Notes: generated by a model from the letters alone, not told the origin. Positions 15,584-24,576 are shown, numbered from the stretch's first letter. The stretch is 64,000 nucleotides of DNA from a virus (IMGVR_UViG_3300047539_000078:32001-96000); one strand, 5' to 3'. Numbers and translations: made by a program.

Positions 15584-18382
15584 CTAAATCTCGCACGACC
15601 CGCCAGCGCACGCCATTTCCTTCTGTGAGGTCGTGCCGTCCTCGATTTCGAATTCAGGCAAGCGGTTCCAATCTACGACCGGGAACGCGGCGACCAGCTT
15701 GTCGTATTCGGCCTTGGTGATTTCCGTGTTCGGAGCCTGTTTGTAGCAGTGCTCCGAGTACGGCAGGAACGAGATGCCGCCGATTTCGTCGAAGTTCTTG
15801 TAGACCCATGCACCGGCCTCCAGCCACTCATGCTCGCGGATGTAGACCGTGCACGACGGGTTGTGCTCCGTCCAATGGCGCTTGTAGGTCAGGTAGAGTT
15901 CGAGCTGCTGGATGGCGTTGCGGTCCTTGCGGAACACGCTCGTGTCCGGGGACTTCATCGGGAAGTAGAAGACGCAGACATCGTTCGGCTTGTTGATCTC
16001 CGGCTCCCAGGGCACTCCCATGGCCTTGAGGAAGTTGCTCACCGGGTCCTTGGCGTCGTTGCGGGTGGCACGGAGGACGAAGGGGCTGTGGCGGTCGTGG
16101 ATGCCGGGGGCACAGTCCACAAGTTGCGAGACCGTCCCGCTTGGCTTGTTGCAAGTTACGGCAGCGGCGGGGTTTATACCGAGCTTTTCGCTCCATTCGA
16201 TGTTGACCTCGATGCAGAACTGCCGCAATGAATCAAGGTTCTTTTCAAGGTCAGGTCCGTTTACGGATGTAAGTCTATTGTCTTCAATGCCGGTCAGGGA
16301 AACACCCAATAGGCGCTCTTCCTCGGCATTTTTCTTCCACTGCTTACGTAGATAGCGGAAATCGGTGAGCGTCGCCTGTAGGGTGCCCAGGATCGTCGCT
16401 AAACGTGCTTTACGGCGGATGTCCGCCCAGGTGTCGGTCGGTCGTACGACCACTTCCGTGAGGTTGCAGAAGCTCATGGAGCGGAGGAGAATCTCGCCGC
16501 ACGGGTTGCAGCCGAATTCGATGCCCTCCCACTTGCGGCGACCGGTCGCCTTTGCGGCCAGTTGGGCGGCATACCGGTTGAAGATGCCGCGTTCCCCGGA
16601 CTTGGACTCGTGGAGGGACAGCCATTCCTTCATGAACATCCCGATTTCAGGCTTTTCGGTGTAGACGGCGGAGTTGTTCGCCAGGCGACGCCACGGGGTG
16701 TTCTCTTCCTTGTACCATTCCCCGGTCTTGGCGTGGCGCATGCGCTCGTCGGACAGGTTGGAGAGGGAAATCATGGCGGAACGCCGGACGCCCCCGGACA
16801 CGACGACATCGGCGACCTTGCACATGAGGTCGTGGCATTCTAGGGAGGTTAGCTTGCGACCCGCAGCGCCCTGGAACAGGTGGACGGAGAACTTCATCAG
16901 GTCGTTGAGGGGTTCGGGACCGGATGCTCGACCGCCGAATGTCTTGAGCTTGGCACCCTTCTCTCGGATGGCGGACAAATCCCAGGTGGGGATCATGCCG
17001 GTGTAAAGCAGTGCGATGAGTTCCTTGAACGCGGTGGCCCAGCCGATTTTGGAATCGCGGACCTTGAGGACGACGCTGCTGTTGTGGAAACTTTCCGCGA
17101 CTACTGGAAGCTGATTGATATACTGGCGCTCGACGGAGAAACCGACCCCGGTCCCGCACATCGAAAGGTACATCGCTTCGTCGAACGCACGCTGGTCGTC
17201 GACGGCTAGATACGCGCAGTTCCCGGTCAAAATGCCATCCGCCAGCGTGAATGCGTGTGTTGCAGGTTCCATGACGCAGAAGACTTCCTCCGGTTCATCC
17301 AAGGGGGTTATGGCTTCAACCTTGAACCATCCGCTCTTTTGTATGGTAAGTCGTTGCAGGGGGTGCTTGCGGACTCCGTAAGGAGTCTCCATTGTAGGGT
17401 CGGTGTTTTTCCCGGTGATGATGTAACCGGCGAGGGGAGAGATTTCCTCAACAAATCTAATAGCAGCATCACTTTGCGAACTCAGGCTGGGTTGTTCCGG
17501 GCGCATGCATCCATCCGCCGCCAGATAACCTTCTAACCAGTTCTTGAGATAGTCGGCATCGGCATCAGTAGGCAGTTTTTTCCAGGTTTCGAAAAATCCT
17601 TTGTGAAATAGTACAACCGCGTCCCCTCCATAGGATGGGGGAAAGCAAACCGAGCAATGACCATAGGATTCAAATATATGCAGCCATTGTTTGTCTTTTT
17701 CCCCGCACAAGCGGACTTTCGCACGGCCACGGGTATCAATCGTACCGTCTCCGAATCCGAAACCAGCTATCCAAGCTTCAGCATTGAACACGACGGAATC
17801 CACGGGAGCACCTACAAAGCGCACTATGTCCCCAACTTGGAGGTCCGTCACTTCTCCGCGATTTTCCGTAAGCCAACGATGGTTAGGGGTTACGGTTATT
17901 TTTCTGCGGATATTCGTCCGAGAACGCCCATGCGGTTCACGTGTCGGCTTGAACGATACCTCCTGGACCGGTTGGATGCCGAAGGATGCAACATCAGCGT
18001 CGGACCACAACCCGTTTTTGGTTAAGACCTTGTGGGTTTGGCCGAACGCCTCAATAAAAGTCTTCACCCCGTCCTTGGTCAGGAATTTTTGGTGCCCCGC
18101 GAAGCAGTTGTATCCGGCAGCGTTGTCTTTCTCTAAAGCCTTGCCAGCCGTCATCATGGCACGCATCGACGGCATGACTTCCATGGCGATGATGGCCTGC
18201 TGGATTTCCTTCACCACCTTTTGCCGATCTTTTTCTGGAATGCGTCCCGAGAAGAAGTCCATGTAGCGTTGGATTGTTTCTTCCCCGTGTTCTCTTCGGT
18301 TTAGATCATCTCTCCATCTTGCGTAGCGTGTTTTGTGGATGAATGACGAATAAAATGCACCGACGTGATTTGAATTTGGCAT
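15584..18382 (-). CDS. nrdJ: Class II (B12-dependent) ribonucleotide reductase with an intein
   Basis: PSMRAM, GTGVGFS, ASGPEPL, GGVRRSA, NPCGEI, FCNLTE, KPSGTVSQL, EHNPS, C-terminal CAGGSC. Confidence 0.92.
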   Translation of the reverse strand: MPNSNHVGAFYSSFIHKTRYARWRDDLNRREHGEETIQRYMDFFSGRIPEKDRQKVVKEIQQAIIAMEVMPSMRAMMTAGKALEKDNAAGYNCFAGHQKFLTKDGVKTFIEAFGQTHKVLTKNGLWSDADVASFGIQPVQEVSFKPTREPHGRSRTNIRRKITVTPNHRWLTENRGEVTDLQVGDIVRFVGAPVDSVVFNAEAWIAGFGFGDGTIDTRGRAKVRLCGEKDKQWLHIFESYGHCSVCFPPSYGGDAVVLFHKGFFETWKKLPTDADADYLKNWLEGYLAADGCMRPEQPSLSSQSDAAIRFVEEISPLAGYIITGKNTDPTMETPYGVRKHPLQRLTIQKSGWFKVEAITPLDEPEEVFCVMEPATHAFTLADGILTGNCAYLAVDDQRAFDEAMYLSMCGTGVGFSVERQYINQLPVVAESFHNSSVVLKVRDSKIGWATAFKELIALLYTGMIPTWDLSAIREKGAKLKTFGGRASGPEPLNDLMKFSVHLFQGAAGRKLTSLECHDLMCKVADVVVSGGVRRSAMISLSNLSDERMRHAKTGEWYKEENTPWRRLANNSAVYTEKPEIGMFMKEWLSLHESKSGERGIFNRYAAQLAAKATGRRKWEGIEFGCNPCGEILLRSMSFCNLTEVVVRPTDTWADIRRKARLATILGTLQATLTDFRYLRKQWKKNAEEERLLGVSLTGIEDNRLTSVNGPDLEKNLDSLRQFCIEVNIEWSEKLGINPAAAVTCNKPSGTVSQLVDCAPGIHDRHSPFVLRATRNDAKDPVSNFLKAMGVPWEPEINKPNDVCVFYFPMKSPDTSVFRKDRNAIQQLELYLTYKRHWTEHNPSCTVYIREHEWLEAGAWVYKNFDEIGGISFLPYSEHCYKQAPNTEITKAEYDKLVAAFPVVDWNRLPEFEIEDGTTSQKEMACAGGSCEI
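17219..18106 (-). mobile_element. Intein (296 aa) with LAGLIDADG homing endonuclease in nrdJ
   Basis: Begins CFAGHQKFLT, block B TPNHRW, LAGLIDADG-like WIAGFGFGDG and WLEGYLAADG, ends ILTGN followed by Cys; lower GC than flanks. Confidence 0.9.
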
Positions 18383-18540
18383 TGGCTGCGAACGACCTCA
18401 GGGTGAAAAATGCGCGTAGTTTGGAGAGAAATCAGGCGACGTATTAGGGTTGGAAAAAATTCTATTCTCTTCATTAGCGAACCGAATTTATAATACCCGA
18501 ACGAGGAGTAGTTGCGGCTAGTTTGTTTTCGCTTTTTTCA

Positions 18541-18873
18541 TCAGAACTTCGAGGAGCGATGCCCAGAATTTTTCCCAATCGTAGTCGGGATCGTTCTTGA
18601 ATTCATTGCCTTCCAGGTACACGCTCTTGTGCACCTGACGCGCCAAGCGCTTGCAAAGCAGCACCGTGTCGCTCGGGATGCCGTCCACGAGAACCATCGG
18701 AAAAACGAACGCGGACGGTTTTCAACGCGGTCATCCACGTGCGTGAAGTGCGTGATTATGACCTCGTCGCCTTCGTCGCTGCAATTCCATTCGTTCCAGT
18801 TGTCGGTCATCCCGAAAAGAATCTGCTCCAAGTGCTTGATGGGGACGACAAAATACTCTTTGTCCTGTTCCAT
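18541..18873 (-). CDS. Hypothetical protein (possible frameshift)
   Basis: ATG 6 nt after the minus-strand TATACT of a palindromic promoter. Confidence 0.5.
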   Translation of the reverse strand: MEQDKEYFVVPIKHLEQILFGMTDNWNEWNCSDEGDEVIITHFTHVDDRVENRPRSFFRWFSWTASRATRCCFASAWRVRCTRACTWKAMNSRTIPTTIGKNSGHRSSKF

Positions 18874-18877
18874 CCCC

Positions 18878-18889
18878 GTAGTATACTAC
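18878..18889. promoter_or_regulatory. Palindromic bidirectional -10 element GTAGTATACTAC
   Basis: Perfect 12-bp palindrome in the 22-bp gap between divergent ATGs at 18873 and 18896. Confidence 0.6.
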
Positions 18890-18895
18890 CCCTTG

Positions 18896-19036
18896 ATGAA
18901 CTGGGGCAAGGCATTCGCGTACACGCAGGCTCTCACGTGCTTCGCCGCGTCGATCTGCTACTTCGCGGTAGGCAACATCCGGTTCGGATTCTATTGGCTC
19001 CTGGCCGGATGCCTCACCGTCACGGTGACGGTTTAA
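18896..19036 (+). CDS. Small two-TM membrane protein
   Basis: MNWGKAFAY...; hydrophobic 46 aa. Confidence 0.55.
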   Translation: MNWGKAFAYTQALTCFAASICYFAVGNIRFGFYWLLAGCLTVTVTV

Positions 19037-19043
19037 AAAGACC

Positions 19044-19073
19044 TTGACATTGATTCAAGTTTCGCGGTATTAT
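19044..19073 (+). promoter_or_regulatory. Sigma70-type promoter P1
   Basis: TTGACA (19044) - 18 nt - TATTAT (19068). Confidence 0.7.
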
Positions 19074-19079
19074 AACCGT

Positions 19080-19176
19080 GACTGATGTACCCGAGTGAAA
19101 ACATTGGCCCCGCATGGTAGCGAGGTGAGCTACAGAGTAGCGTTCGTAACTGAGCAGGATTGCGGGGTTCAATTTA
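19080..19176 (+). ncRNA. Candidate small structured RNA
   Basis: Directly after P1; closing stem ATTGGCCCCGCA/TGCGGGGTTCAAT with an internal GTAGC/GCTAC hairpin; no ORF. Confidence 0.45.
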
Positions 19177-19181
19177 TCAGC

Positions 19182-19210
19182 TTGACAAATGAAGTGAGAA
19201 ATGCGACTAT
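19182..19210 (+). promoter_or_regulatory. Sigma70-type promoter P2 for the leader and tRNA operon
   Basis: TTGACA (19182) - 17 nt - TGn GACTAT (19205). Confidence 0.6.
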
Positions 19211-19227
19211 GAAACTCTAGGCTGAAC

Positions 19228-19362
19228 ATGAACACTCTTCTCAAGACCGGACGAATTACCCGAGATACCTTCGACAACGTCGTCAGCTTCCAGGACGGCG
19301 TGGTCGTGACATCCGTACGCATTGACACGGATGGTGAACGAGGTATCGAGGTTGGCATCTAA
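19228..19362 (+). CDS. Candidate leader peptide (44 aa) of the tRNA operon
   Basis: MNTLLKTGRITRDTFDNVVSFQDGVVVTSVRIDTDGERGIEVGI; between P2 and the first tRNA. Confidence 0.55.
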   Translation: MNTLLKTGRITRDTFDNVVSFQDGVVVTSVRIDTDGERGIEVGI

Positions 19363-19430
19363 GCGTCCCCGCACCAAAGGGCGCTTTCAAGCGCCAACCC
19401 ACCGGAAGTAGAAGCAAAATCTAAACATAC

Positions 19431-19506
19431 AGTCGGTTAGCTCAGAGGCAAGAGCACTACGTTTACACCGTAGGGGTCGAGATTTCAAAATTCTCACCGA
19501 CTACCA
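19431..19506 (+). tRNA. tRNA-Val(TAC)
   Basis: Cloverleaf, CTACG-TTTACAC-CGTAG, encoded CCA. Confidence 0.9.
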
Positions 19507-19515
19507 AGGACATTT

Positions 19516-20091
19516 ATGAGTGAGAGCCGGGTTTGGGTGATTTCAGACACGCACTGGAATCGCAACAAGATCAAGACGTATTGCGTGCGGCCACCGGGGT
19601 ACACCGAGCGGAGCATCCGCCTGTGGAATAACACGGTCAAGCCGGAGGATATGGTCATCCATTTGGGCGACGTGGCAATCGGCGGATACGACCAGGTGAA
19701 GGAAATCTTGGACAGCCTGCCGGGAACCAAGGTCCTCGTCACGGGTAACCATGATGAGAGCAAGTCGCTGACCTGGTGGATGCGGAACGGTTTTGTGTTC
19801 GCTTGTGAGGGGTTGGCTTTTCGGAATATCTGGTTGTCGCACAGACCAGCGTACCGGTTGCCGCCAGGGTGCCACCTGAATGTGCACGGTCATCTGCACA
19901 TCAAGCGGGAACACTGGAAGGTGATGAAGCCCTTCAACAAGCTGTTCGCGTTGGAGTATACGGATTATCGACCGGTGGTTTTCGACAAGTTCGTACAGTC
20001 ACCGTCGATTCGGGATTTGAAGTGGGAAGACCACCGTCCCGTGGAGCACGACCGCTTCATCGAGGCGCGAGTGCATCCGATTCCGTGGTAA
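19516..20091 (+). CDS. Calcineurin-like metallophosphoesterase inside the tRNA array
   Basis: SDTH, LGD, GNHD, SH, HGHLH. Confidence 0.85.
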   Translation: MSESRVWVISDTHWNRNKIKTYCVRPPGYTERSIRLWNNTVKPEDMVIHLGDVAIGGYDQVKEILDSLPGTKVLVTGNHDESKSLTWWMRNGFVFACEGLAFRNIWLSHRPAYRLPPGCHLNVHGHLHIKREHWKVMKPFNKLFALEYTDYRPVVFDKFVQSPSIRDLKWEDHRPVEHDRFIEARVHPIPW

Positions 20092-20176
20092 CCAAATTCG
20101 TAGGCAGGTTGAAATCCCTGTCTCGCAAAGCTGTGGGAGCCTGTTTGCCGGTTATCCAAACAGGTTCTCTACATTT

Positions 20177-20251
20177 GCCTGTGTCGTCCAAGGGCTAGGA
20201 CGCACCCTCGATAGGGGTGTCATGGTGGTTCGAATCCATCCGCAGGTACCA
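20177..20251 (+). tRNA. tRNA-Ile(GAT) with atypical C33/G38
   Basis: Cloverleaf, CACCC-TCGATAG-GGGTG, TTCGAAT T-loop, CCA. Confidence 0.7.
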
Positions 20252-20325
20252 TTAGGCAGAGATTCTGGCCAGACGCCAGATGGTCACAGTTGACCATCGT
20301 TTAACTAAGACGTTGCCTCCTTTTT

Positions 20326-20532
20326 ATGGAACAGCATGATTTTGTTGATTGGGCGGGAGTCGCCAGAATGCTCTTTGCTGGCTGGAACCCGTATCCCGAC
20401 AAGGCTTATTGTGAGAAGGTCGGCTGGTGTGTGAATACGGACGGCACCGTGGATACTCCGGGCGGAATCCGTATCCCGACGCGGGACCTTTTTGAAGTAA
20501 AGGAACTTGAGGCTCTATACAAGTTGGGGTGA
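20326..20532 (+). CDS. Hypothetical protein
   Basis: 68 aa ORF between tRNAs. Confidence 0.5.
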   Translation: MEQHDFVDWAGVARMLFAGWNPYPDKAYCEKVGWCVNTDGTVDTPGGIRIPTRDLFEVKELEALYKLG

Positions 20533-20555
20533 TGTGGACTTTTGAACGGTATTAT

Positions 20556-20630
20556 AGGCGGTTAGCTCAGTGGTTAGAGCGCGTCTCTCACACGGACGAG
20601 GCTCGGGTTCGATTCCCGACCTGCCTACCA
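20556..20630 (+). tRNA. tRNA-Val(CAC)
   Basis: CGTCT-CTCACAC-GGACG, canonical D and T arms, CCA. Confidence 0.88.
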
Positions 20631-20653
20631 AGAAGTTGTGGTATCATAGTAGT

Positions 20654-21046
20654 ATGAAAGACACAACTGGCATTGGTTCCGTAACTGAAGCTATGGTTTT
20701 GGCGGCCTTGATTCGCCAAGGGAAACAGGTTTACATCCCCTTTAGTGGGGACTCACGCAGCGATTTGATCGTGGATGGGGAAAGCGGTCTCATTCGCATT
20801 CAATGTAAGACGGGTCGGCTGCGTAATGGTTGCGTTGAGTTTCGCAACTATAGCCAAACAAGTGCGGGACTTCGACCGTATCAAAAGAAAGATGTTGATG
20901 TTTTCGGTGTTTATTGTCCGGCCAACGGGAAAGTGTATGTGGTTCCCATTGAAGAGTGTGGCGGACAACTTACGTTGCTTCGAATAGAACCAACGAAGAA
21001 TAACTACAAGAAGGGCGTTCGATTTGCAGTAAAGTACGAAGTTTAG
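20654..21046 (+). mobile_element. Free-standing PD-(D/E)XK homing endonuclease (I-Ssp6803I-like family)
   Basis: G...E...AL...G..VYIPF.....DLIVD.....RIQCKT...DVFGVYCP...VYVVP; AT-richer than flanks; own -10 6 nt before ATG. Confidence 0.8.
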
Positions 21047-21048
21047 TT

Positions 21049-21122
21049 GCGGGCATCGTATAGTGGTAATACACATGCTTGCCAAGCATGAGATGTGAGT
21101 TCGATTCTCATTGCCCGCTCCA
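21049..21122 (+). tRNA. tRNA-Gly(GCC)
   Basis: CATGC-TTGCCAA-GCATG, U73, CCA. Confidence 0.92.
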
Positions 21123-21197
21123 TCGTGGAATTAAGTAGTGGAGGCGACTTGCAACGCAAGTTGAACCTGAGAAGCTATGAAGTCCACGTAAACTTAT

Positions 21198-21272
21198 GCG
21201 GTACTTTGTCGGTCTTGGAGTCTAGACACGGGACCGGACGCAGGCCCGTTGAATGACGGGGGGACCGCTCCA
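21198..21272 (+). ncRNA. tRNA-sized element with a Gly-like acceptor stem, no D arm
   Basis: GCGGT...ACCGC-T-CCA; long central stem CGGTCTTG/CGGGACCG; CCCGT-TGAATG-ACGGG arm. Confidence 0.45.
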
Positions 21273-21274
21273 GT

Positions 21275-21566
21275 TTCTGTCACCCGAAAGGGTCGCTCGG
21301 TGCGGAAAGGGGCTGACACCGCAAGTTACAAAAGCCCGACAGATTGATTTTGTGTGCACCGTGCGGACCCTCACGCATATCGCGAGATGGGAAAAGCACC
21401 GGGATTAAGGCCCGAGATTCGACAGCCGAGAGGTTCGGCGGTGAACGGCCTAAAAGCCCGAACCGCTTGGTGGCGAAAGCCAACACCGACTGGCGCACGC
21501 AACTAAATTTATAAAAGGAAGGGAGTGGCAACACCAACCCTTCGGCGGGGCACTTAAAAATGCCCT
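21275..21566 (+). ncRNA. Candidate large structured ncRNA, GNRA-rich
   Basis: Many helices with GAAA/GCGA/GCAA loops, a pseudoknot-compatible pairing, no credible ORF. Confidence 0.65.
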
Positions 21567-21568
21567 AT

Positions 21569-21643
21569 GCCCTGCTAGCTCAGTGGTTAGAGCGCAGCCA
21601 TGACACGGCTGAAACAGAGGTTCAATTCCTCTGCGGGGCACCA
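21569..21643 (+). tRNA. tRNA-Val(GAC)
   Basis: CAGCC-ATGACAC-GGCTG, CCA. Confidence 0.9.
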
Positions 21644-21646
21644 GAT

Positions 21647-21720
21647 GCGGGCGTCGTACAATGGCAGTATAGAAGCTTCCCAAGCTTCGGATGTGGGTTC
21701 GATTCCCATCGCCCGCTCCA
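21647..21720 (+). tRNA. tRNA-Gly(CCC)
   Basis: GAAGC-TTCCCAA-GCTTC, CCA. Confidence 0.92.
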
Positions 21721-21784
21721 GAAGTCCCGCCAGTCTTCGGACTGGCAATGTCTCGGACCCGTGGAATGAGGATAACGGGCAAAC

Positions 21785-21858
21785 GCGGGGTTGGCATATA
21801 GGTTGTGCACCAGCCTTCCAAGCTGGACAAACGGGTTCGAGTCCCGTACCCCGCTCCA
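21785..21858 (+). tRNA. tRNA-Gly(TCC)
   Basis: CCAGC-CTTCCAA-GCTGG, CCA. Confidence 0.92.
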
Positions 21859-21934
21859 GTGTTCTTGTCGTTGACTAGGATGCCGCCCATAAGAGGGTGG
21901 AGCATCCTTGGTGGCGTCAAGGACACTTAAAATT

Positions 21935-22010
21935 GGTGCTGTAGAGGAACGGCTAACTCGTCTCCCTGTCACGGAGAAGATAGTGGGTTCGACACCCATC
22001 AGCACCGCCA
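21935..22010 (+). tRNA. tRNA-Asp(GTC)
   Basis: TCTCC-CTGTCAC-GGAGA, G73, CCA. Confidence 0.92.
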
Positions 22011-22012
22011 GT

Positions 22013-22083
22013 GTTCCTGTAGTCTAACCAGGACGCCGCTCCTTTGGGCGGAGATGTGGGCTTGACGCCCGCCGGGGACACCA
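22013..22083 (+). pseudogene. Degenerate tRNA, anticodon undetermined
   Basis: Acceptor GTTCCTG/CGGGGAC-A-CCA; 6-nt loop CCTTTG; non-canonical T loop CTTGACG. Confidence 0.6.
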
Positions 22084-22132
22084 GCCGTGACGTAGACTGG
22101 GGAACGGGTTTCTACGGCCAGGTTCCCCTTAT

Positions 22133-22207
22133 GGCCCACTAGTGCAACGGCCAGCACACTTGGTTCTCAACCAAGAGACGCGGGTTCAACTCCCACGTGG
22201 GCTACCA
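22133..22207 (+). tRNA. tRNA-Glu(CTC)
   Basis: CTTGG-TTCTCAA-CCAAG, CCA. Confidence 0.85.
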
Positions 22208-22405
22208 GCTTAGCGTGCCCCCATCAACGGGGGTGAGCAGGTGCGTTATCACCTGAGGCGAAGCCGACCTTAACGACGGCATTAGTCCCCTGCTGAAATG
22301 CAGGCGTAGCTAGGCACGATTTCTGAGATAGTAGGAAAGAGTATCTTGCGGGCTGGCTGATGGGTTCCGCATCTAAGTTCTACCTACTGAGTTGCATCAG
22401 CATTT

Positions 22406-22479
22406 GGCCCGTTAGTGTATAGGTAACACATGAGCCTTTCAAGCTCATTAAGCGAGTTCGAGTCTCGCACGGGCTACCA
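22406..22479 (+). tRNA. tRNA-Glu(TTC)
   Basis: TGAGC-CTTTCAA-GCTCA, CCA. Confidence 0.9.
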
Positions 22480-22487
22480 AATCCTCC

Positions 22488-22637
22488 ATGAGTCCCAAAC
22501 TTCACATCGTTTCCGAGGGCGGGAAGTTCGTCATCAAAGACGAGCAAAGTCACGCATACGGAACATACCCCACGAAAAAGCAAGCCGACGATACCGCGAA
22601 GCTGTGGCGGGATTACTACGAAGACCGGCACGCATAA
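22488..22637 (+). CDS. Small hypothetical protein (49 aa)
   Basis: MSPKLHIVSEGGKF...YGTYPTKKQAD. Confidence 0.5.
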   Translation: MSPKLHIVSEGGKFVIKDEQSHAYGTYPTKKQADDTAKLWRDYYEDRHA

Positions 22638-22676
22638 TTTCCTCCATGAATGTCCTATCCCGTGGTATCATAGGCT

Positions 22677-23225
22677 ATGCCTCGAATTTCAAACGCCTTT
22701 GACGCATACCGGTTTCTCCATGACCACCCCGCCTTCCGCCTATCCGAACGATCTGAAATCACGCTCAACGAAGCAGTCTTCCAACGGGAGATGGGATTTC
22801 TCATCACGAAGGATCGCGGCGGGCAGCATTATCGCGTGTGGCGTCACGTGCACCGCCGCGCCATTGCCGAGAATCTTGACATTTTCTATACGAAGACCGA
22901 CAAGCCAGGCGGGCACGGAACCGTCCAGGAAGACAAATCCAAAAACAGGCACGTCGAATGCTGGTTGGAGTTCGGTCCGCTCAGTTATGGCTATAGCGTT
23001 GATTGGGAAGATACGACCCGCCTGCAGCATGAACACGATTGGCGCTTGGACACGGGCGGGTCGACTTTCGATGAAGCAATCGTCAGCTTGGCGAGACTCG
23101 TCAAGAAATTCTACGGCGACTACAAGCTTGGAAAGCGCACTGACGATTGCGATACACCGATATGTGCCGATTGCTTGGAGACAGGGTTCATGGTAGAGCG
23201 CTTGGGCTTGGGGAAGAAGAAATGA
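22677..23225 (+). CDS. Hypothetical phage protein
   Basis: TGGTATCAT 5 nt before ATG; VECWLEFGP...HDWRLDTGGSTFDEAI. Confidence 0.7.
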   Translation: MPRISNAFDAYRFLHDHPAFRLSERSEITLNEAVFQREMGFLITKDRGGQHYRVWRHVHRRAIAENLDIFYTKTDKPGGHGTVQEDKSKNRHVECWLEFGPLSYGYSVDWEDTTRLQHEHDWRLDTGGSTFDEAIVSLARLVKKFYGDYKLGKRTDDCDTPICADCLETGFMVERLGLGKKK

Positions 23226-23375
23226 GCGGATATACCCACGATGAACTCGGCAACCTTATTCGCCGCGATTCCGAGGACAATCCCACATGCTCCAAATGCG
23301 GCGATTTTGTGTTCTGCGACGTGCCATGTTTTAGATGCTATCCGGAGTGGTATGCACGAAAAAGAGGGCAAATGA

Positions 23376-23642
23376 GTGAAGATTCTCACGACTTCAAAAA
23401 TTCGTCCGTCTTCCTGTCCGGCGTGCGGAAGCGATATCCAGCTTGTTCGAAAATGGCTATGGATTCAAGCACAAGTGGATGGAGCGTATGCCGCCACAAG
23501 TTGGCACACCTGGCGGGTGTTGGACGCCGCGAAGCCGAATGCAGAGTGGATGAAGGACATCGACATCCCGAAGCCCGGTTCCGACGACTTGGTCCTCACG
23601 GCCCAGGATGAGAAGATTCTTCGCCGTCTGATAAAGATATGA
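23376..23642 (+). CDS. Hypothetical protein with CPACG
   Basis: Operon position. Confidence 0.5.
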   Translation: MKILTTSKIRPSSCPACGSDIQLVRKWLWIQAQVDGAYAATSWHTWRVLDAAKPNAEWMKDIDIPKPGSDDLVLTAQDEKILRRLIKI

Positions 23643-23834: not shown

Positions 23835-24576
23835 GTGAAAAAACTACAGCTCATCTCCGACCTTCACTCTGAATTCTATCGGGGGAAGGAAGAACAGCTC
23901 ATCGACGGCCTGCCTATCGCCGAGAAGCTGGACTTCCTCGTGGTCGCGGGCGATACCGTCGTCTTCGGGAGCCAGCCCGAGTACATCGTGGATGTCATTT
24001 TCTCCAAGATTTCCCGGATGGCCGAACGACATCCTGTTGGTCACCGGCAATCACGAATACTACAACTCCTCCAAAGTATTCGCGGAGGATGCACTGTCCA
24101 AAGCCCTTCGAAACTACCGCAACATCACATGGCTGGACAACGAGGGCCTCATACTCAACGGCGTGCGCTTCTACGGCGGCACGATGTGGTATTCCGCCGG
24201 GGACGGGCTGAACCAAATCTACGAACATCACATCAACGATTACAGCTTGATCCGCGATTTCAATTGGGCGGAGAAGGAAAACGCCGTGTTCACCGCCAAC
24301 GCGCTGCGTTTCGTCGATTCGAGCACGGTCGTCATCTCGCATCACATGCCTCATCCGGCATGCATATCTCCGAAGTATCGAAATTCCAATATCAATCGGT
24401 TTTTTACGTCGGATCAGACGGAAGTCATCACTTCCAAGCGTCCCCGCCTGTGGTTTGCCGGTCATACGCATGACAGAAGCGATACAACCGTTGAGGACAC
24501 CAGAATCATAATAAACCCGCTAGGGTACCCGGGTGAGAACCCGGGGCCATATCCGCAGGTCATCCTGGAGGTGTGA
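23835..24576 (+). CDS. Calcineurin-like metallophosphoesterase (frameshift near 24030)
   Basis: SDLH and AGD in one frame; GNHEYY, SHHMP, GHTH, NPLGY in the next. Confidence 0.85.

Follow-up and report, generated by a model that had tools for sequence, protein, structure and literature searches.

The locus described here raises the question of whether an array of phage tRNA genes can be controlled by a short open reading frame (ORF) lying just ahead of it, an ORF written largely in the codons that the tRNAs of the array themselves read. The stretch analysed – 64,000 nucleotides, hereafter the window – comprises bases 32001-96000 of a 142-kb IMG/VR virus record (IMGVR_UViG_3300047539_000078), whose estimated completeness of 42% implies a jumbo phage as its source, and every DNA and RNA run containing the stretch comes from peat metagenomes. 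ARAGORN and Rfam place ten tRNA genes on the plus strand at 19431..22479 (three for Val, one for Ile, three for Gly, one for Asp and two for Glu), in the order Val-UAC, Ile-GAU, Val-CAC, Gly-GCC, Val-GAC, Gly-CCC, Gly-UCC, Asp-GUC, Glu-CUC and Glu-UUC; these ten are all the tRNAs of the 142-kb record.

Protein genes are interspersed in the array, namely a metallophosphatase (19516-20091) and a PD-(D/E)XK_5 nuclease (20654-21046), both recognised by Pfam, together with a 68-codon ORF (20326-20532). Between tRNA-Gly(GCC) and tRNA-Val(GAC) lie 446 nt (21123-21568) with neither a tRNA nor a convincing ORF nor an Rfam match, spanned by long RNA-library contigs in four runs. An Rfam search of 18000-23500 at E up to 1 returned the ten tRNAs and five sub-gathering matches – three to Tymo_tRNA-like, one each to Plastid-ycf2 and COG3943 RNA, four of the five falling on tRNA genes – and nothing on 19182-19430, while blastn against GenBank phages gave matches at the tRNA level only, to Vibrio and Rhodococcus phages. 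Further upstream, on the minus strand (15584-18382), the window carries a 932-residue ORF resembling class II ribonucleotide reductases, with a weak match to an intein-splicing domain inside it.

The initial annotation of 19182-19430, made from the sequence alone, proposed that a 44-codon ORF is the leader of a switch controlling the tRNA operon. This ORF, here called ORF44, runs on the plus strand from an ATG to a TAA stop (19228..19362, 44 codons plus stop) and is preceded, 6 nt before the ATG, by a Shine-Dalgarno-like AGG (19219..19221). The latter was rightly described as weak, being AGG only, and it is kept in L095 and L096, two metagenome contigs whose copies of the ORF are 95% and 91% identical to ORF44. 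Its codon counts were also given correctly: Val, Asp, Gly, Glu and Ile, the five specificities of the ten tRNAs, account for 23 of the 44 codons, and the array tRNAs read 17 of the 22 codons in the distal half (codons 23-44, 19294..19359). Leaving the ATG aside, the array can decode 23 of 43. All of GTC, GTG, GTA and GTT are used, as are GAA and GAG, GAC and GAT, and ATT and ATC, and there is no Ala codon. The match is incomplete in ways that the initial annotation had in part pointed out, since six Thr and four Arg codons lack a counterpart among the array tRNAs and GGG does not occur despite tRNA-Gly(CCC); codons for Phe, Asn, Leu, Lys and Ser are likewise without an array tRNA. The longest run is Val-Val-Val, and there are no long runs.

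Measured against the genome background, this enrichment is significant but modest (p about 0.003-0.005). In 118 long-ORF gene proxies from the same 142-kb record the five amino acids together make up 31.3% of residues, which gives a binomial p=0.003 for 23 of 44; the same count is reached by 1.3% of 44-residue windows within genes and by 0.8% of 627 small ORFs. The distal count of 17 in 22 is reached by 0.014% of 22-residue windows, for a split that was picked after the fact. Against a position-matched null, which admits any ATG ORF whose end lies 30-170 nt upstream of a randomly placed anchor, ORF44 has p=0.005; here the statistics are the maximum over all candidate ORFs, for real and null anchors alike, because a 'longest ORF' rule took the wrong frame in two of 15 cassettes. 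Coverage of nine of the ten anticodons within 43 codons lies within chance (p=0.28). Taken alone, the window's own statistics are suggestive and no more.

A broader view is provided by the relatives of this phage. The second metallophosphatase, encoded downstream of the array, served as bait and led to seven related loci on records of up to 456 kb, each with an array of readers of GNN codons that starts at or just after tRNA-Val(UAC) and each with an ATG-initiated ORF, 36-47 codons long, whose end lies 42-73 nt upstream of that tRNA. ORF44 fits this layout: its stop lies 68 nt before tRNA-Val, and it sits behind a promoter, P1, of the GGTATTAT-type, as do the cassettes of the family as a whole (ORF end 40-130 nt upstream). 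The first metallophosphatase, used as bait in turn, retrieved many loci, with a tRNA array at one of them alone, that of the complete relative G002, and the window's own piece of the second metallophosphatase had no matches. That gene is intact in G002 and five other relatives; in the window (23835-24576) it is broken up over two overlapping frames, the shift from one to the other falling between 24023 and 24031, and may be either a pseudogene or an assembly error.

What the leaders of these GNN arrays encode follows what the arrays contain. In the five arrays with Ala and Cys tRNAs, the leader ORFs hold eight to ten Ala codons and one Cys codon, whereas the window and G002 have neither Ala or Cys tRNAs downstream nor Ala or Cys codons in the leader; both have Ile tRNAs and Ile codons instead, and G002 has Phe too. 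The window and G002 also have derived features in common – a metallophosphatase and a tRNA-Ile, both within the array – so that the contrast in Ala and Cys may represent one evolutionary event. At the sequence level, ORF44 and the G002 ORF align with 15 invariant columns; their pairwise similarity is weak (E=0.06 for a single comparison), the synteny is exact, and a profile search built on the two sequences finds, at E<1e-15, family members only. Position and sequence thus argue that ORF44 is a relative of a family of codon-matched leaders. The ORF being conserved and its enrichment significant, the initial annotation holds on both counts. Among the other tRNAs of this clade are suppressor-type ones – UUA inside the GNN array of G002 (L002 5497-5567), CUA pairs in G001 and G003, and UCA in G002 and L098 (loci including L142, L147 and L140) – which hint at stop-codon read-through or recoding in the clade.

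The same correspondence recurs at other arrays. The complete relatives G001 and G002 carry 64 and 43 tRNAs, respectively, distributed over further thematic arrays (L135-L150), which group GNN readers; Tyr, Leu and Ser; Trp, His, Lys, Arg, Asn and Gln; Pro; and Thr and Gln. The initial annotation had asked whether other tRNA clusters have leaders matching their own tRNA sets, and in these relatives several do. A Leu/Ser/Tyr-rich leader precedes an array of the composition Tyr-Leu5-Ser4-Ile(UAU), includes ATA for the Ile and covers ten of 11 anticodons in 26 codons (p=0.0016); a leader with Lys, Arg, Asn, Gln, Trp, His and Ala codons precedes exactly those tRNAs; Thr/Gln/Cys and Thr/Gln/Ile leaders precede other arrays; and Pro leaders use three types of Pro codon. 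In G002, where Cys and Ala tRNAs are found in other arrays, it is the leaders of those arrays that have Cys and Ala codons. For 12 of 14 leaders the position-matched empirical p lies at 0.0003-0.03, and for the Pro leaders at about 0.1. Every leader scores highest against its own array, and among all permutations of leaders over arrays (120 in G002, 24 in G001) the true pairing comes out best in both genomes. These leaders, at 16-31 codons, are unrelated in sequence yet share one design. No leader was seen before the Ser array of G001, its Ile/Thr/Gln array or single Met tRNAs.

How such a leader could act is suggested by the RNA that follows it. In nine of the 15 cassettes there is a terminator with a U tract (-15 to -21.5 kcal/mol), separated from the leader stop by 12-26 nt and from the first tRNA by 8-24 nt. 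When the RNA of these nine is folded without the 3' arm of the terminator, each forms a long hairpin with the stop codon close to its tip, in which the final eight to ten codons of the leader are base-paired to the 5' arm of the terminator; compensatory changes in the terminator helix are seen among five GNN cassettes. As modelled, the layout of the nine cassettes is that of a textbook attenuator, reading from promoter to short ORF in the array's codons, antiterminator, U-tract terminator and first tRNA, and relatives G001-G005 display it in full. If the test codons are read slowly, the antiterminator would be able to form and RNA polymerase would enter the tRNA genes; with fast decoding, a ribosome at the stop codon would cover the 5' arm of the antiterminator, and the terminator would form. 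Depletion or cleavage of host tRNAs, put forward in the initial annotation, is a plausible candidate for the trigger.

In the window, part of this arrangement is recognisable. A 50-nt imperfect hairpin surrounds the stop codon (19350..19399, plus strand; -22.0 kcal/mol, z -4.1), its outer stem (19350-56/19393-99) extending an inner one (19361-68/19379-86); it takes in the last five codons of ORF44 and the stop, with its 5' arm in the last codons and the stop codon within an internal loop. In the folding models, this hairpin is the positional counterpart of the relatives' antiterminator. It is kept in L095, in L096 (-26.9 kcal/mol, z -4.05) and in G002 (-19.2 kcal/mol, z -4.4). A competing 6-bp hairpin (19380..19395, -10.6 kcal/mol) shares 19380-85 with it and has a weaker counterpart in L096 (-8.6 kcal/mol) and none in G002. 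The initial annotation had spoken of two mutually exclusive hairpins after the stop, and these are indeed present, as 19361-68/19379-86 (-10.1 kcal/mol) and 19380-85/19390-95. Its three-way junction within the ORF fares less well: although the junction is the predicted minimum-free-energy fold, its z score is only -2.15 and comparison lends it no support, natural variants at 19280 and 19311 breaking pairs with no compensation, and we have discarded it as a feature.

What the window does not share with the nine cassettes is the terminator. No intrinsic terminator was found in 19363-19430, nor at the corresponding place in L095, L096 or the GNN cassette of G002, and the short U tract credited to the locus is not there, no U tract following either hairpin. 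The window lineage and G002 are the only GNN cassettes found to be terminator-less. The spacer from the leader stop to tRNA-Val (19363..19430, plus strand) is C-rich, as first described, and G-poor, with 23 C and 14 G in 68 nt (C/G 1.64); the highest C/G ratios among the 15 cassettes are those of the spacers in the window and in the G002 GNN cassette. By these predictions, the window would keep the sensor half and a two-state RNA without the usual output device. The proposed leader-peptide switch can therefore be upheld for the family in related jumbo phages but not, in its full form, for the window itself, where, with no intrinsic terminator between ORF and tRNA-Val, the sequence does not show a 'switching on' by antitermination.

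Upstream of ORF44, the features relevant to transcription also differ from those first proposed. P1 is a sigma-70-type promoter (19044..19073, plus strand; TTGACA, 18 nt, TATTAT) with 11 of 12 consensus matches in a promoter scan and an A-rich stretch upstream. It is kept in L096, there 45 nt from the leader ATG, and the same -10 precedes the leaders of other arrays in relatives; by sequence, P1 appears to be the conserved promoter of the array. The element originally named as the promoter, P2 (19182..19210, plus strand), combines a perfect -35 (TTGACA) with a weak -10 (GACTAT, three of six matches) at a spacing of 17 nt. It is doubtful as a promoter, given its -10, its absence from the calls of the promoter scan and the lack of the -35 in L096; RNA-library contigs begin upstream of it, and it is probably not the main promoter. 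In an alignment of the window, L095 and L096, its -35 falls within an insertion of some 115 nt that separates P1 from the leader (19076..19190, plus strand). This insertion, present in the window and L095 and not in L096, lengthens the distance from P1 to the ATG and holds, besides the perfect TTGACA, a long-range 7-bp stem (19108-14/19161-67) followed by a T-rich run. The insertion folds no better than shuffled sequences (z -0.49), and as a candidate for a decayed tRNA-Ala it shows no convincing likeness to the tRNA-Ala of relatives. Directly upstream of P1, on the same strand, is a 46-codon hydrophobic ORF (18896-19036) with 88% DNA identity in L096, which one RNA-library contig joins to the leader.

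The leader itself is covered by contigs from four peat metatranscriptome libraries, belonging to four studies. Two of these contigs bridge 19111 or 19118 to 19424, and adapter-marked fragment ends fall at 19111 and 19129, upstream of P2 – with the proviso that RNA contigs give neither levels nor true ends and may include DNA carry-over. Two apparent signals were set aside, one being a drop in contig depth after the leader in four runs (depth cannot rank the parts of a stretch) and the other a set of 118-nt contigs (19260-19377) that resembled RNA ends and are taken to be assembly bubbles because the distance from their ends to SNPs at 19290 and 19347 is exactly 30 nt. Within the array, 20253 is followed directly by 20521 in RNA-library contigs from two runs, which thus lack 267 nt (20254-20520) with most of the 68-codon ORF between tRNA-Ile and tRNA-Val(CAC); the gap reflects a deletion haplotype or else the excision of an element.

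Taking these observations together, we regard it as reasonably probable that ORF44 is the leader of the GNN array, a member of the cassette family, which belongs to a clade of jumbo phages from peat and soil, and a still-working sensor of ribosome position with a non-canonical read-out. Since the U-tract terminator is missing, transcription from P1 probably reads largely through; the leader would probably still report the position of the ribosome, and the choice between hairpins would be read otherwise than by intrinsic termination. Two candidates for this read-out are Rho loading at the C-rich spacer and changes in how the leader-tRNA-Val precursor is processed or how stable it is. The more specific proposal – that in the window lineage and G002 the position of the ribosome picks the hairpin and thereby sets Rho loading, or the cutting or stability of the precursor, so tuning tRNA supply – is a tentative one, which we put forward at considerably lower confidence. 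Rho-dependent control through a leader ORF is known from tnaC-tnaA of Escherichia coli and from mgtL-type leaders. The window resembles the tnaC type in having a leader ORF followed by a C-rich, G-poor spacer with no intrinsic terminator, a likeness of composition only, and in that the position of a ribosome near the stop could set access to the spacer RNA; it differs in that the spacer is just 68 nt long and half of it lies inside a stable hairpin, in that ORF44 has no known arrest-peptide motif, and in that the relatives use intrinsic terminators.

The strongest competitor to a working sensor is a vestigial attenuator that has lost its terminator, is read through constitutively and retains an ORF and a hairpin with no regulatory role. 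The missing U-tract terminator in the window, L095, L096 and the G002 GNN cassette, set against the strong terminators of sister cassettes, is what such a relic would display, and so is the toleration of the 115-nt insertion between promoter and leader. The stop codon drifts as well: a 1-nt indel just before it extends the ORF to 53 codons in L096 and 60 in L095, as against 44 in the window, so that near-identical relatives terminate at codon 45, 54 or 61, with C-terminal extensions of 9 and 16 residues. A stop position this variable is not easily tolerated by classical attenuation. A relic should nevertheless evolve neutrally, and ORF44 does not appear to. Over the segment from at least 18874 to 19506, the window and L096 diverge by 22% in the 5' UTR, 9.6% in the ORF, 22% in the spacer and 38% in tRNA-Val(UAC); the ORF, two to four times less divergent than its flanks and the adjacent tRNA, is therefore the best-kept part of a mosaic segment. 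From 19507 on, the two differ at eight positions only, seven of them in non-coding spacers and two at the alignment edge.

The kind of change within the ORF also argues against a relic. When the window, L095, L096 and a variant from RNA-library contigs are pooled, ORF44 shows ten synonymous and three replacement changes (pN/pS 0.10, P=1.4e-4); the RNA-library variant contributes C>T changes at 19290, 19320 and 19347, all at third positions, and the two internal replacements, Val to Gly and Gly to Val, both stay within the tRNA set. The antisense ORF, which shares these third positions, takes five synonymous and eight replacement changes, including one stop, and the plus frame is therefore the selected one. 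On this comparison, ORF44 is under purifying selection as a translated frame. Moreover, the long hairpin persists although the window and L096 are about 15 changes apart within 40 nt, and leader composition has tracked the changed tRNA set (no Ala, no Cys) in the two terminator-less lineages. We accordingly consider a vestigial attenuator unlikely, though of the competing explanations it is the one to be taken most seriously.

The mosaic segment ends in a feature of separate interest. Two alleles of tRNA-Val(UAC), 38% apart (window 19431-19506; L096 444-518), occur in genomes that are otherwise identical downstream, and the break between them is sharp at the 3' end of the tRNA gene. One of the two bridging RNA-library contigs runs from a window-type leader into an L096-type tRNA-Val and would add a third combination. 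The alleles could stem from module exchange or from diversifying pressure acting on the tRNA.

Purifying selection on an amino-acid sequence would equally be expected if ORF44, as the first gene of a mixed tRNA/protein operon, encoded a small protein whose function had nothing to do with sensing; its richness in Val, Gly and Asp would then be that of a beta-rich or acidic peptide. That other protein genes are interspersed in the array is in keeping with such a role, and relatives of ORF44 are annotated as 'hypothetical protein'. Yet searches of Pfam and PHROGs with ORF44 and its relatives assign no family, and protein searches of 5.8 and 1.8 billion sequences return three relatives only, of 60, 53 and 36 residues, besides two long repetitive proteins that we rejected as low-complexity matches. 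The physico-chemical character of the peptide is not maintained either, with a hydrophobic core of Ala, Val and Gly in five relatives as against a charged, Asp/Glu/Arg-rich sequence in the window, and C-terminal extensions of 9 and 16 residues are tolerated. The leaders of 16-31 codons that match other arrays follow the same design with unrelated sequences. A separate protein function is thus improbable to our minds, somewhat more so than a relic. As for a chance ORF in the structured, GC-rich 5' leader of a tRNA precursor, with a coincidental codon match, the modest enrichment (reached by 0.8% of the record's small ORFs) and the non-significant anticodon coverage would allow it, but a frame preserved with an excess of synonymous changes, homologous ORFs at the same place in seven loci and the recurrence of the design at other arrays make it very improbable indeed.

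If ORF44 is, as we favour, a leader that still senses the ribosome, the nearest precedents are the classical leader-peptide attenuators: trpL, hisL, leuL, thrL and pheL, and the multivalent leaders of ilvGMEDA and ilvBN. Shared with these enterobacterial systems are a short leader ORF enriched in the codons of several amino acids, the placement of its last codons in a competing hairpin and, in the nine related cassettes, a full terminator/antiterminator pair of the usual geometry. Unlike them, the phage cassettes control tRNAs rather than biosynthetic enzymes, their leaders span five or more amino acids and nearly every isoacceptor in place of single-residue runs, and the window has no U-tract terminator. 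T-box riboswitches, too, couple tRNA supply to translation-related genes through a choice between terminator and antiterminator; they bind uncharged tRNA directly and need no ORF, and the Rfam search of 18000-23500 (E up to 1) contained no T-box match. A search of the full-text literature turned up no description of tRNA genes or tRNA arrays under leader-peptide control; the paper on the Anabaena trn operon makes no mention of attenuation, a leader peptide, a terminator or a small ORF, and the word 'stalling' occurs in it once only, in a cited title (PMC8421152). The control logic is known, then, and what is new is its target, a tRNA array, the design by which many codons are sampled, and the terminator-less form.

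Phage tRNA genes are usually seen as constitutive cargo, carried to correct codon usage or to replace host tRNAs that have been destroyed. If the reading offered here is true, a phage of this clade would instead gauge the speed of decoding for each codon family and make each block of tRNAs on demand, applying the logic of the trp operon to the translation machinery itself. This would also explain the thematic sorting of tRNAs into arrays in these giant phages. As the cassettes span only 150-250 nt, they are directly testable with reporters, and the window – a natural variant in which the sensor would be kept and the terminator lost – helps to separate the role of the leader from that of the terminator.
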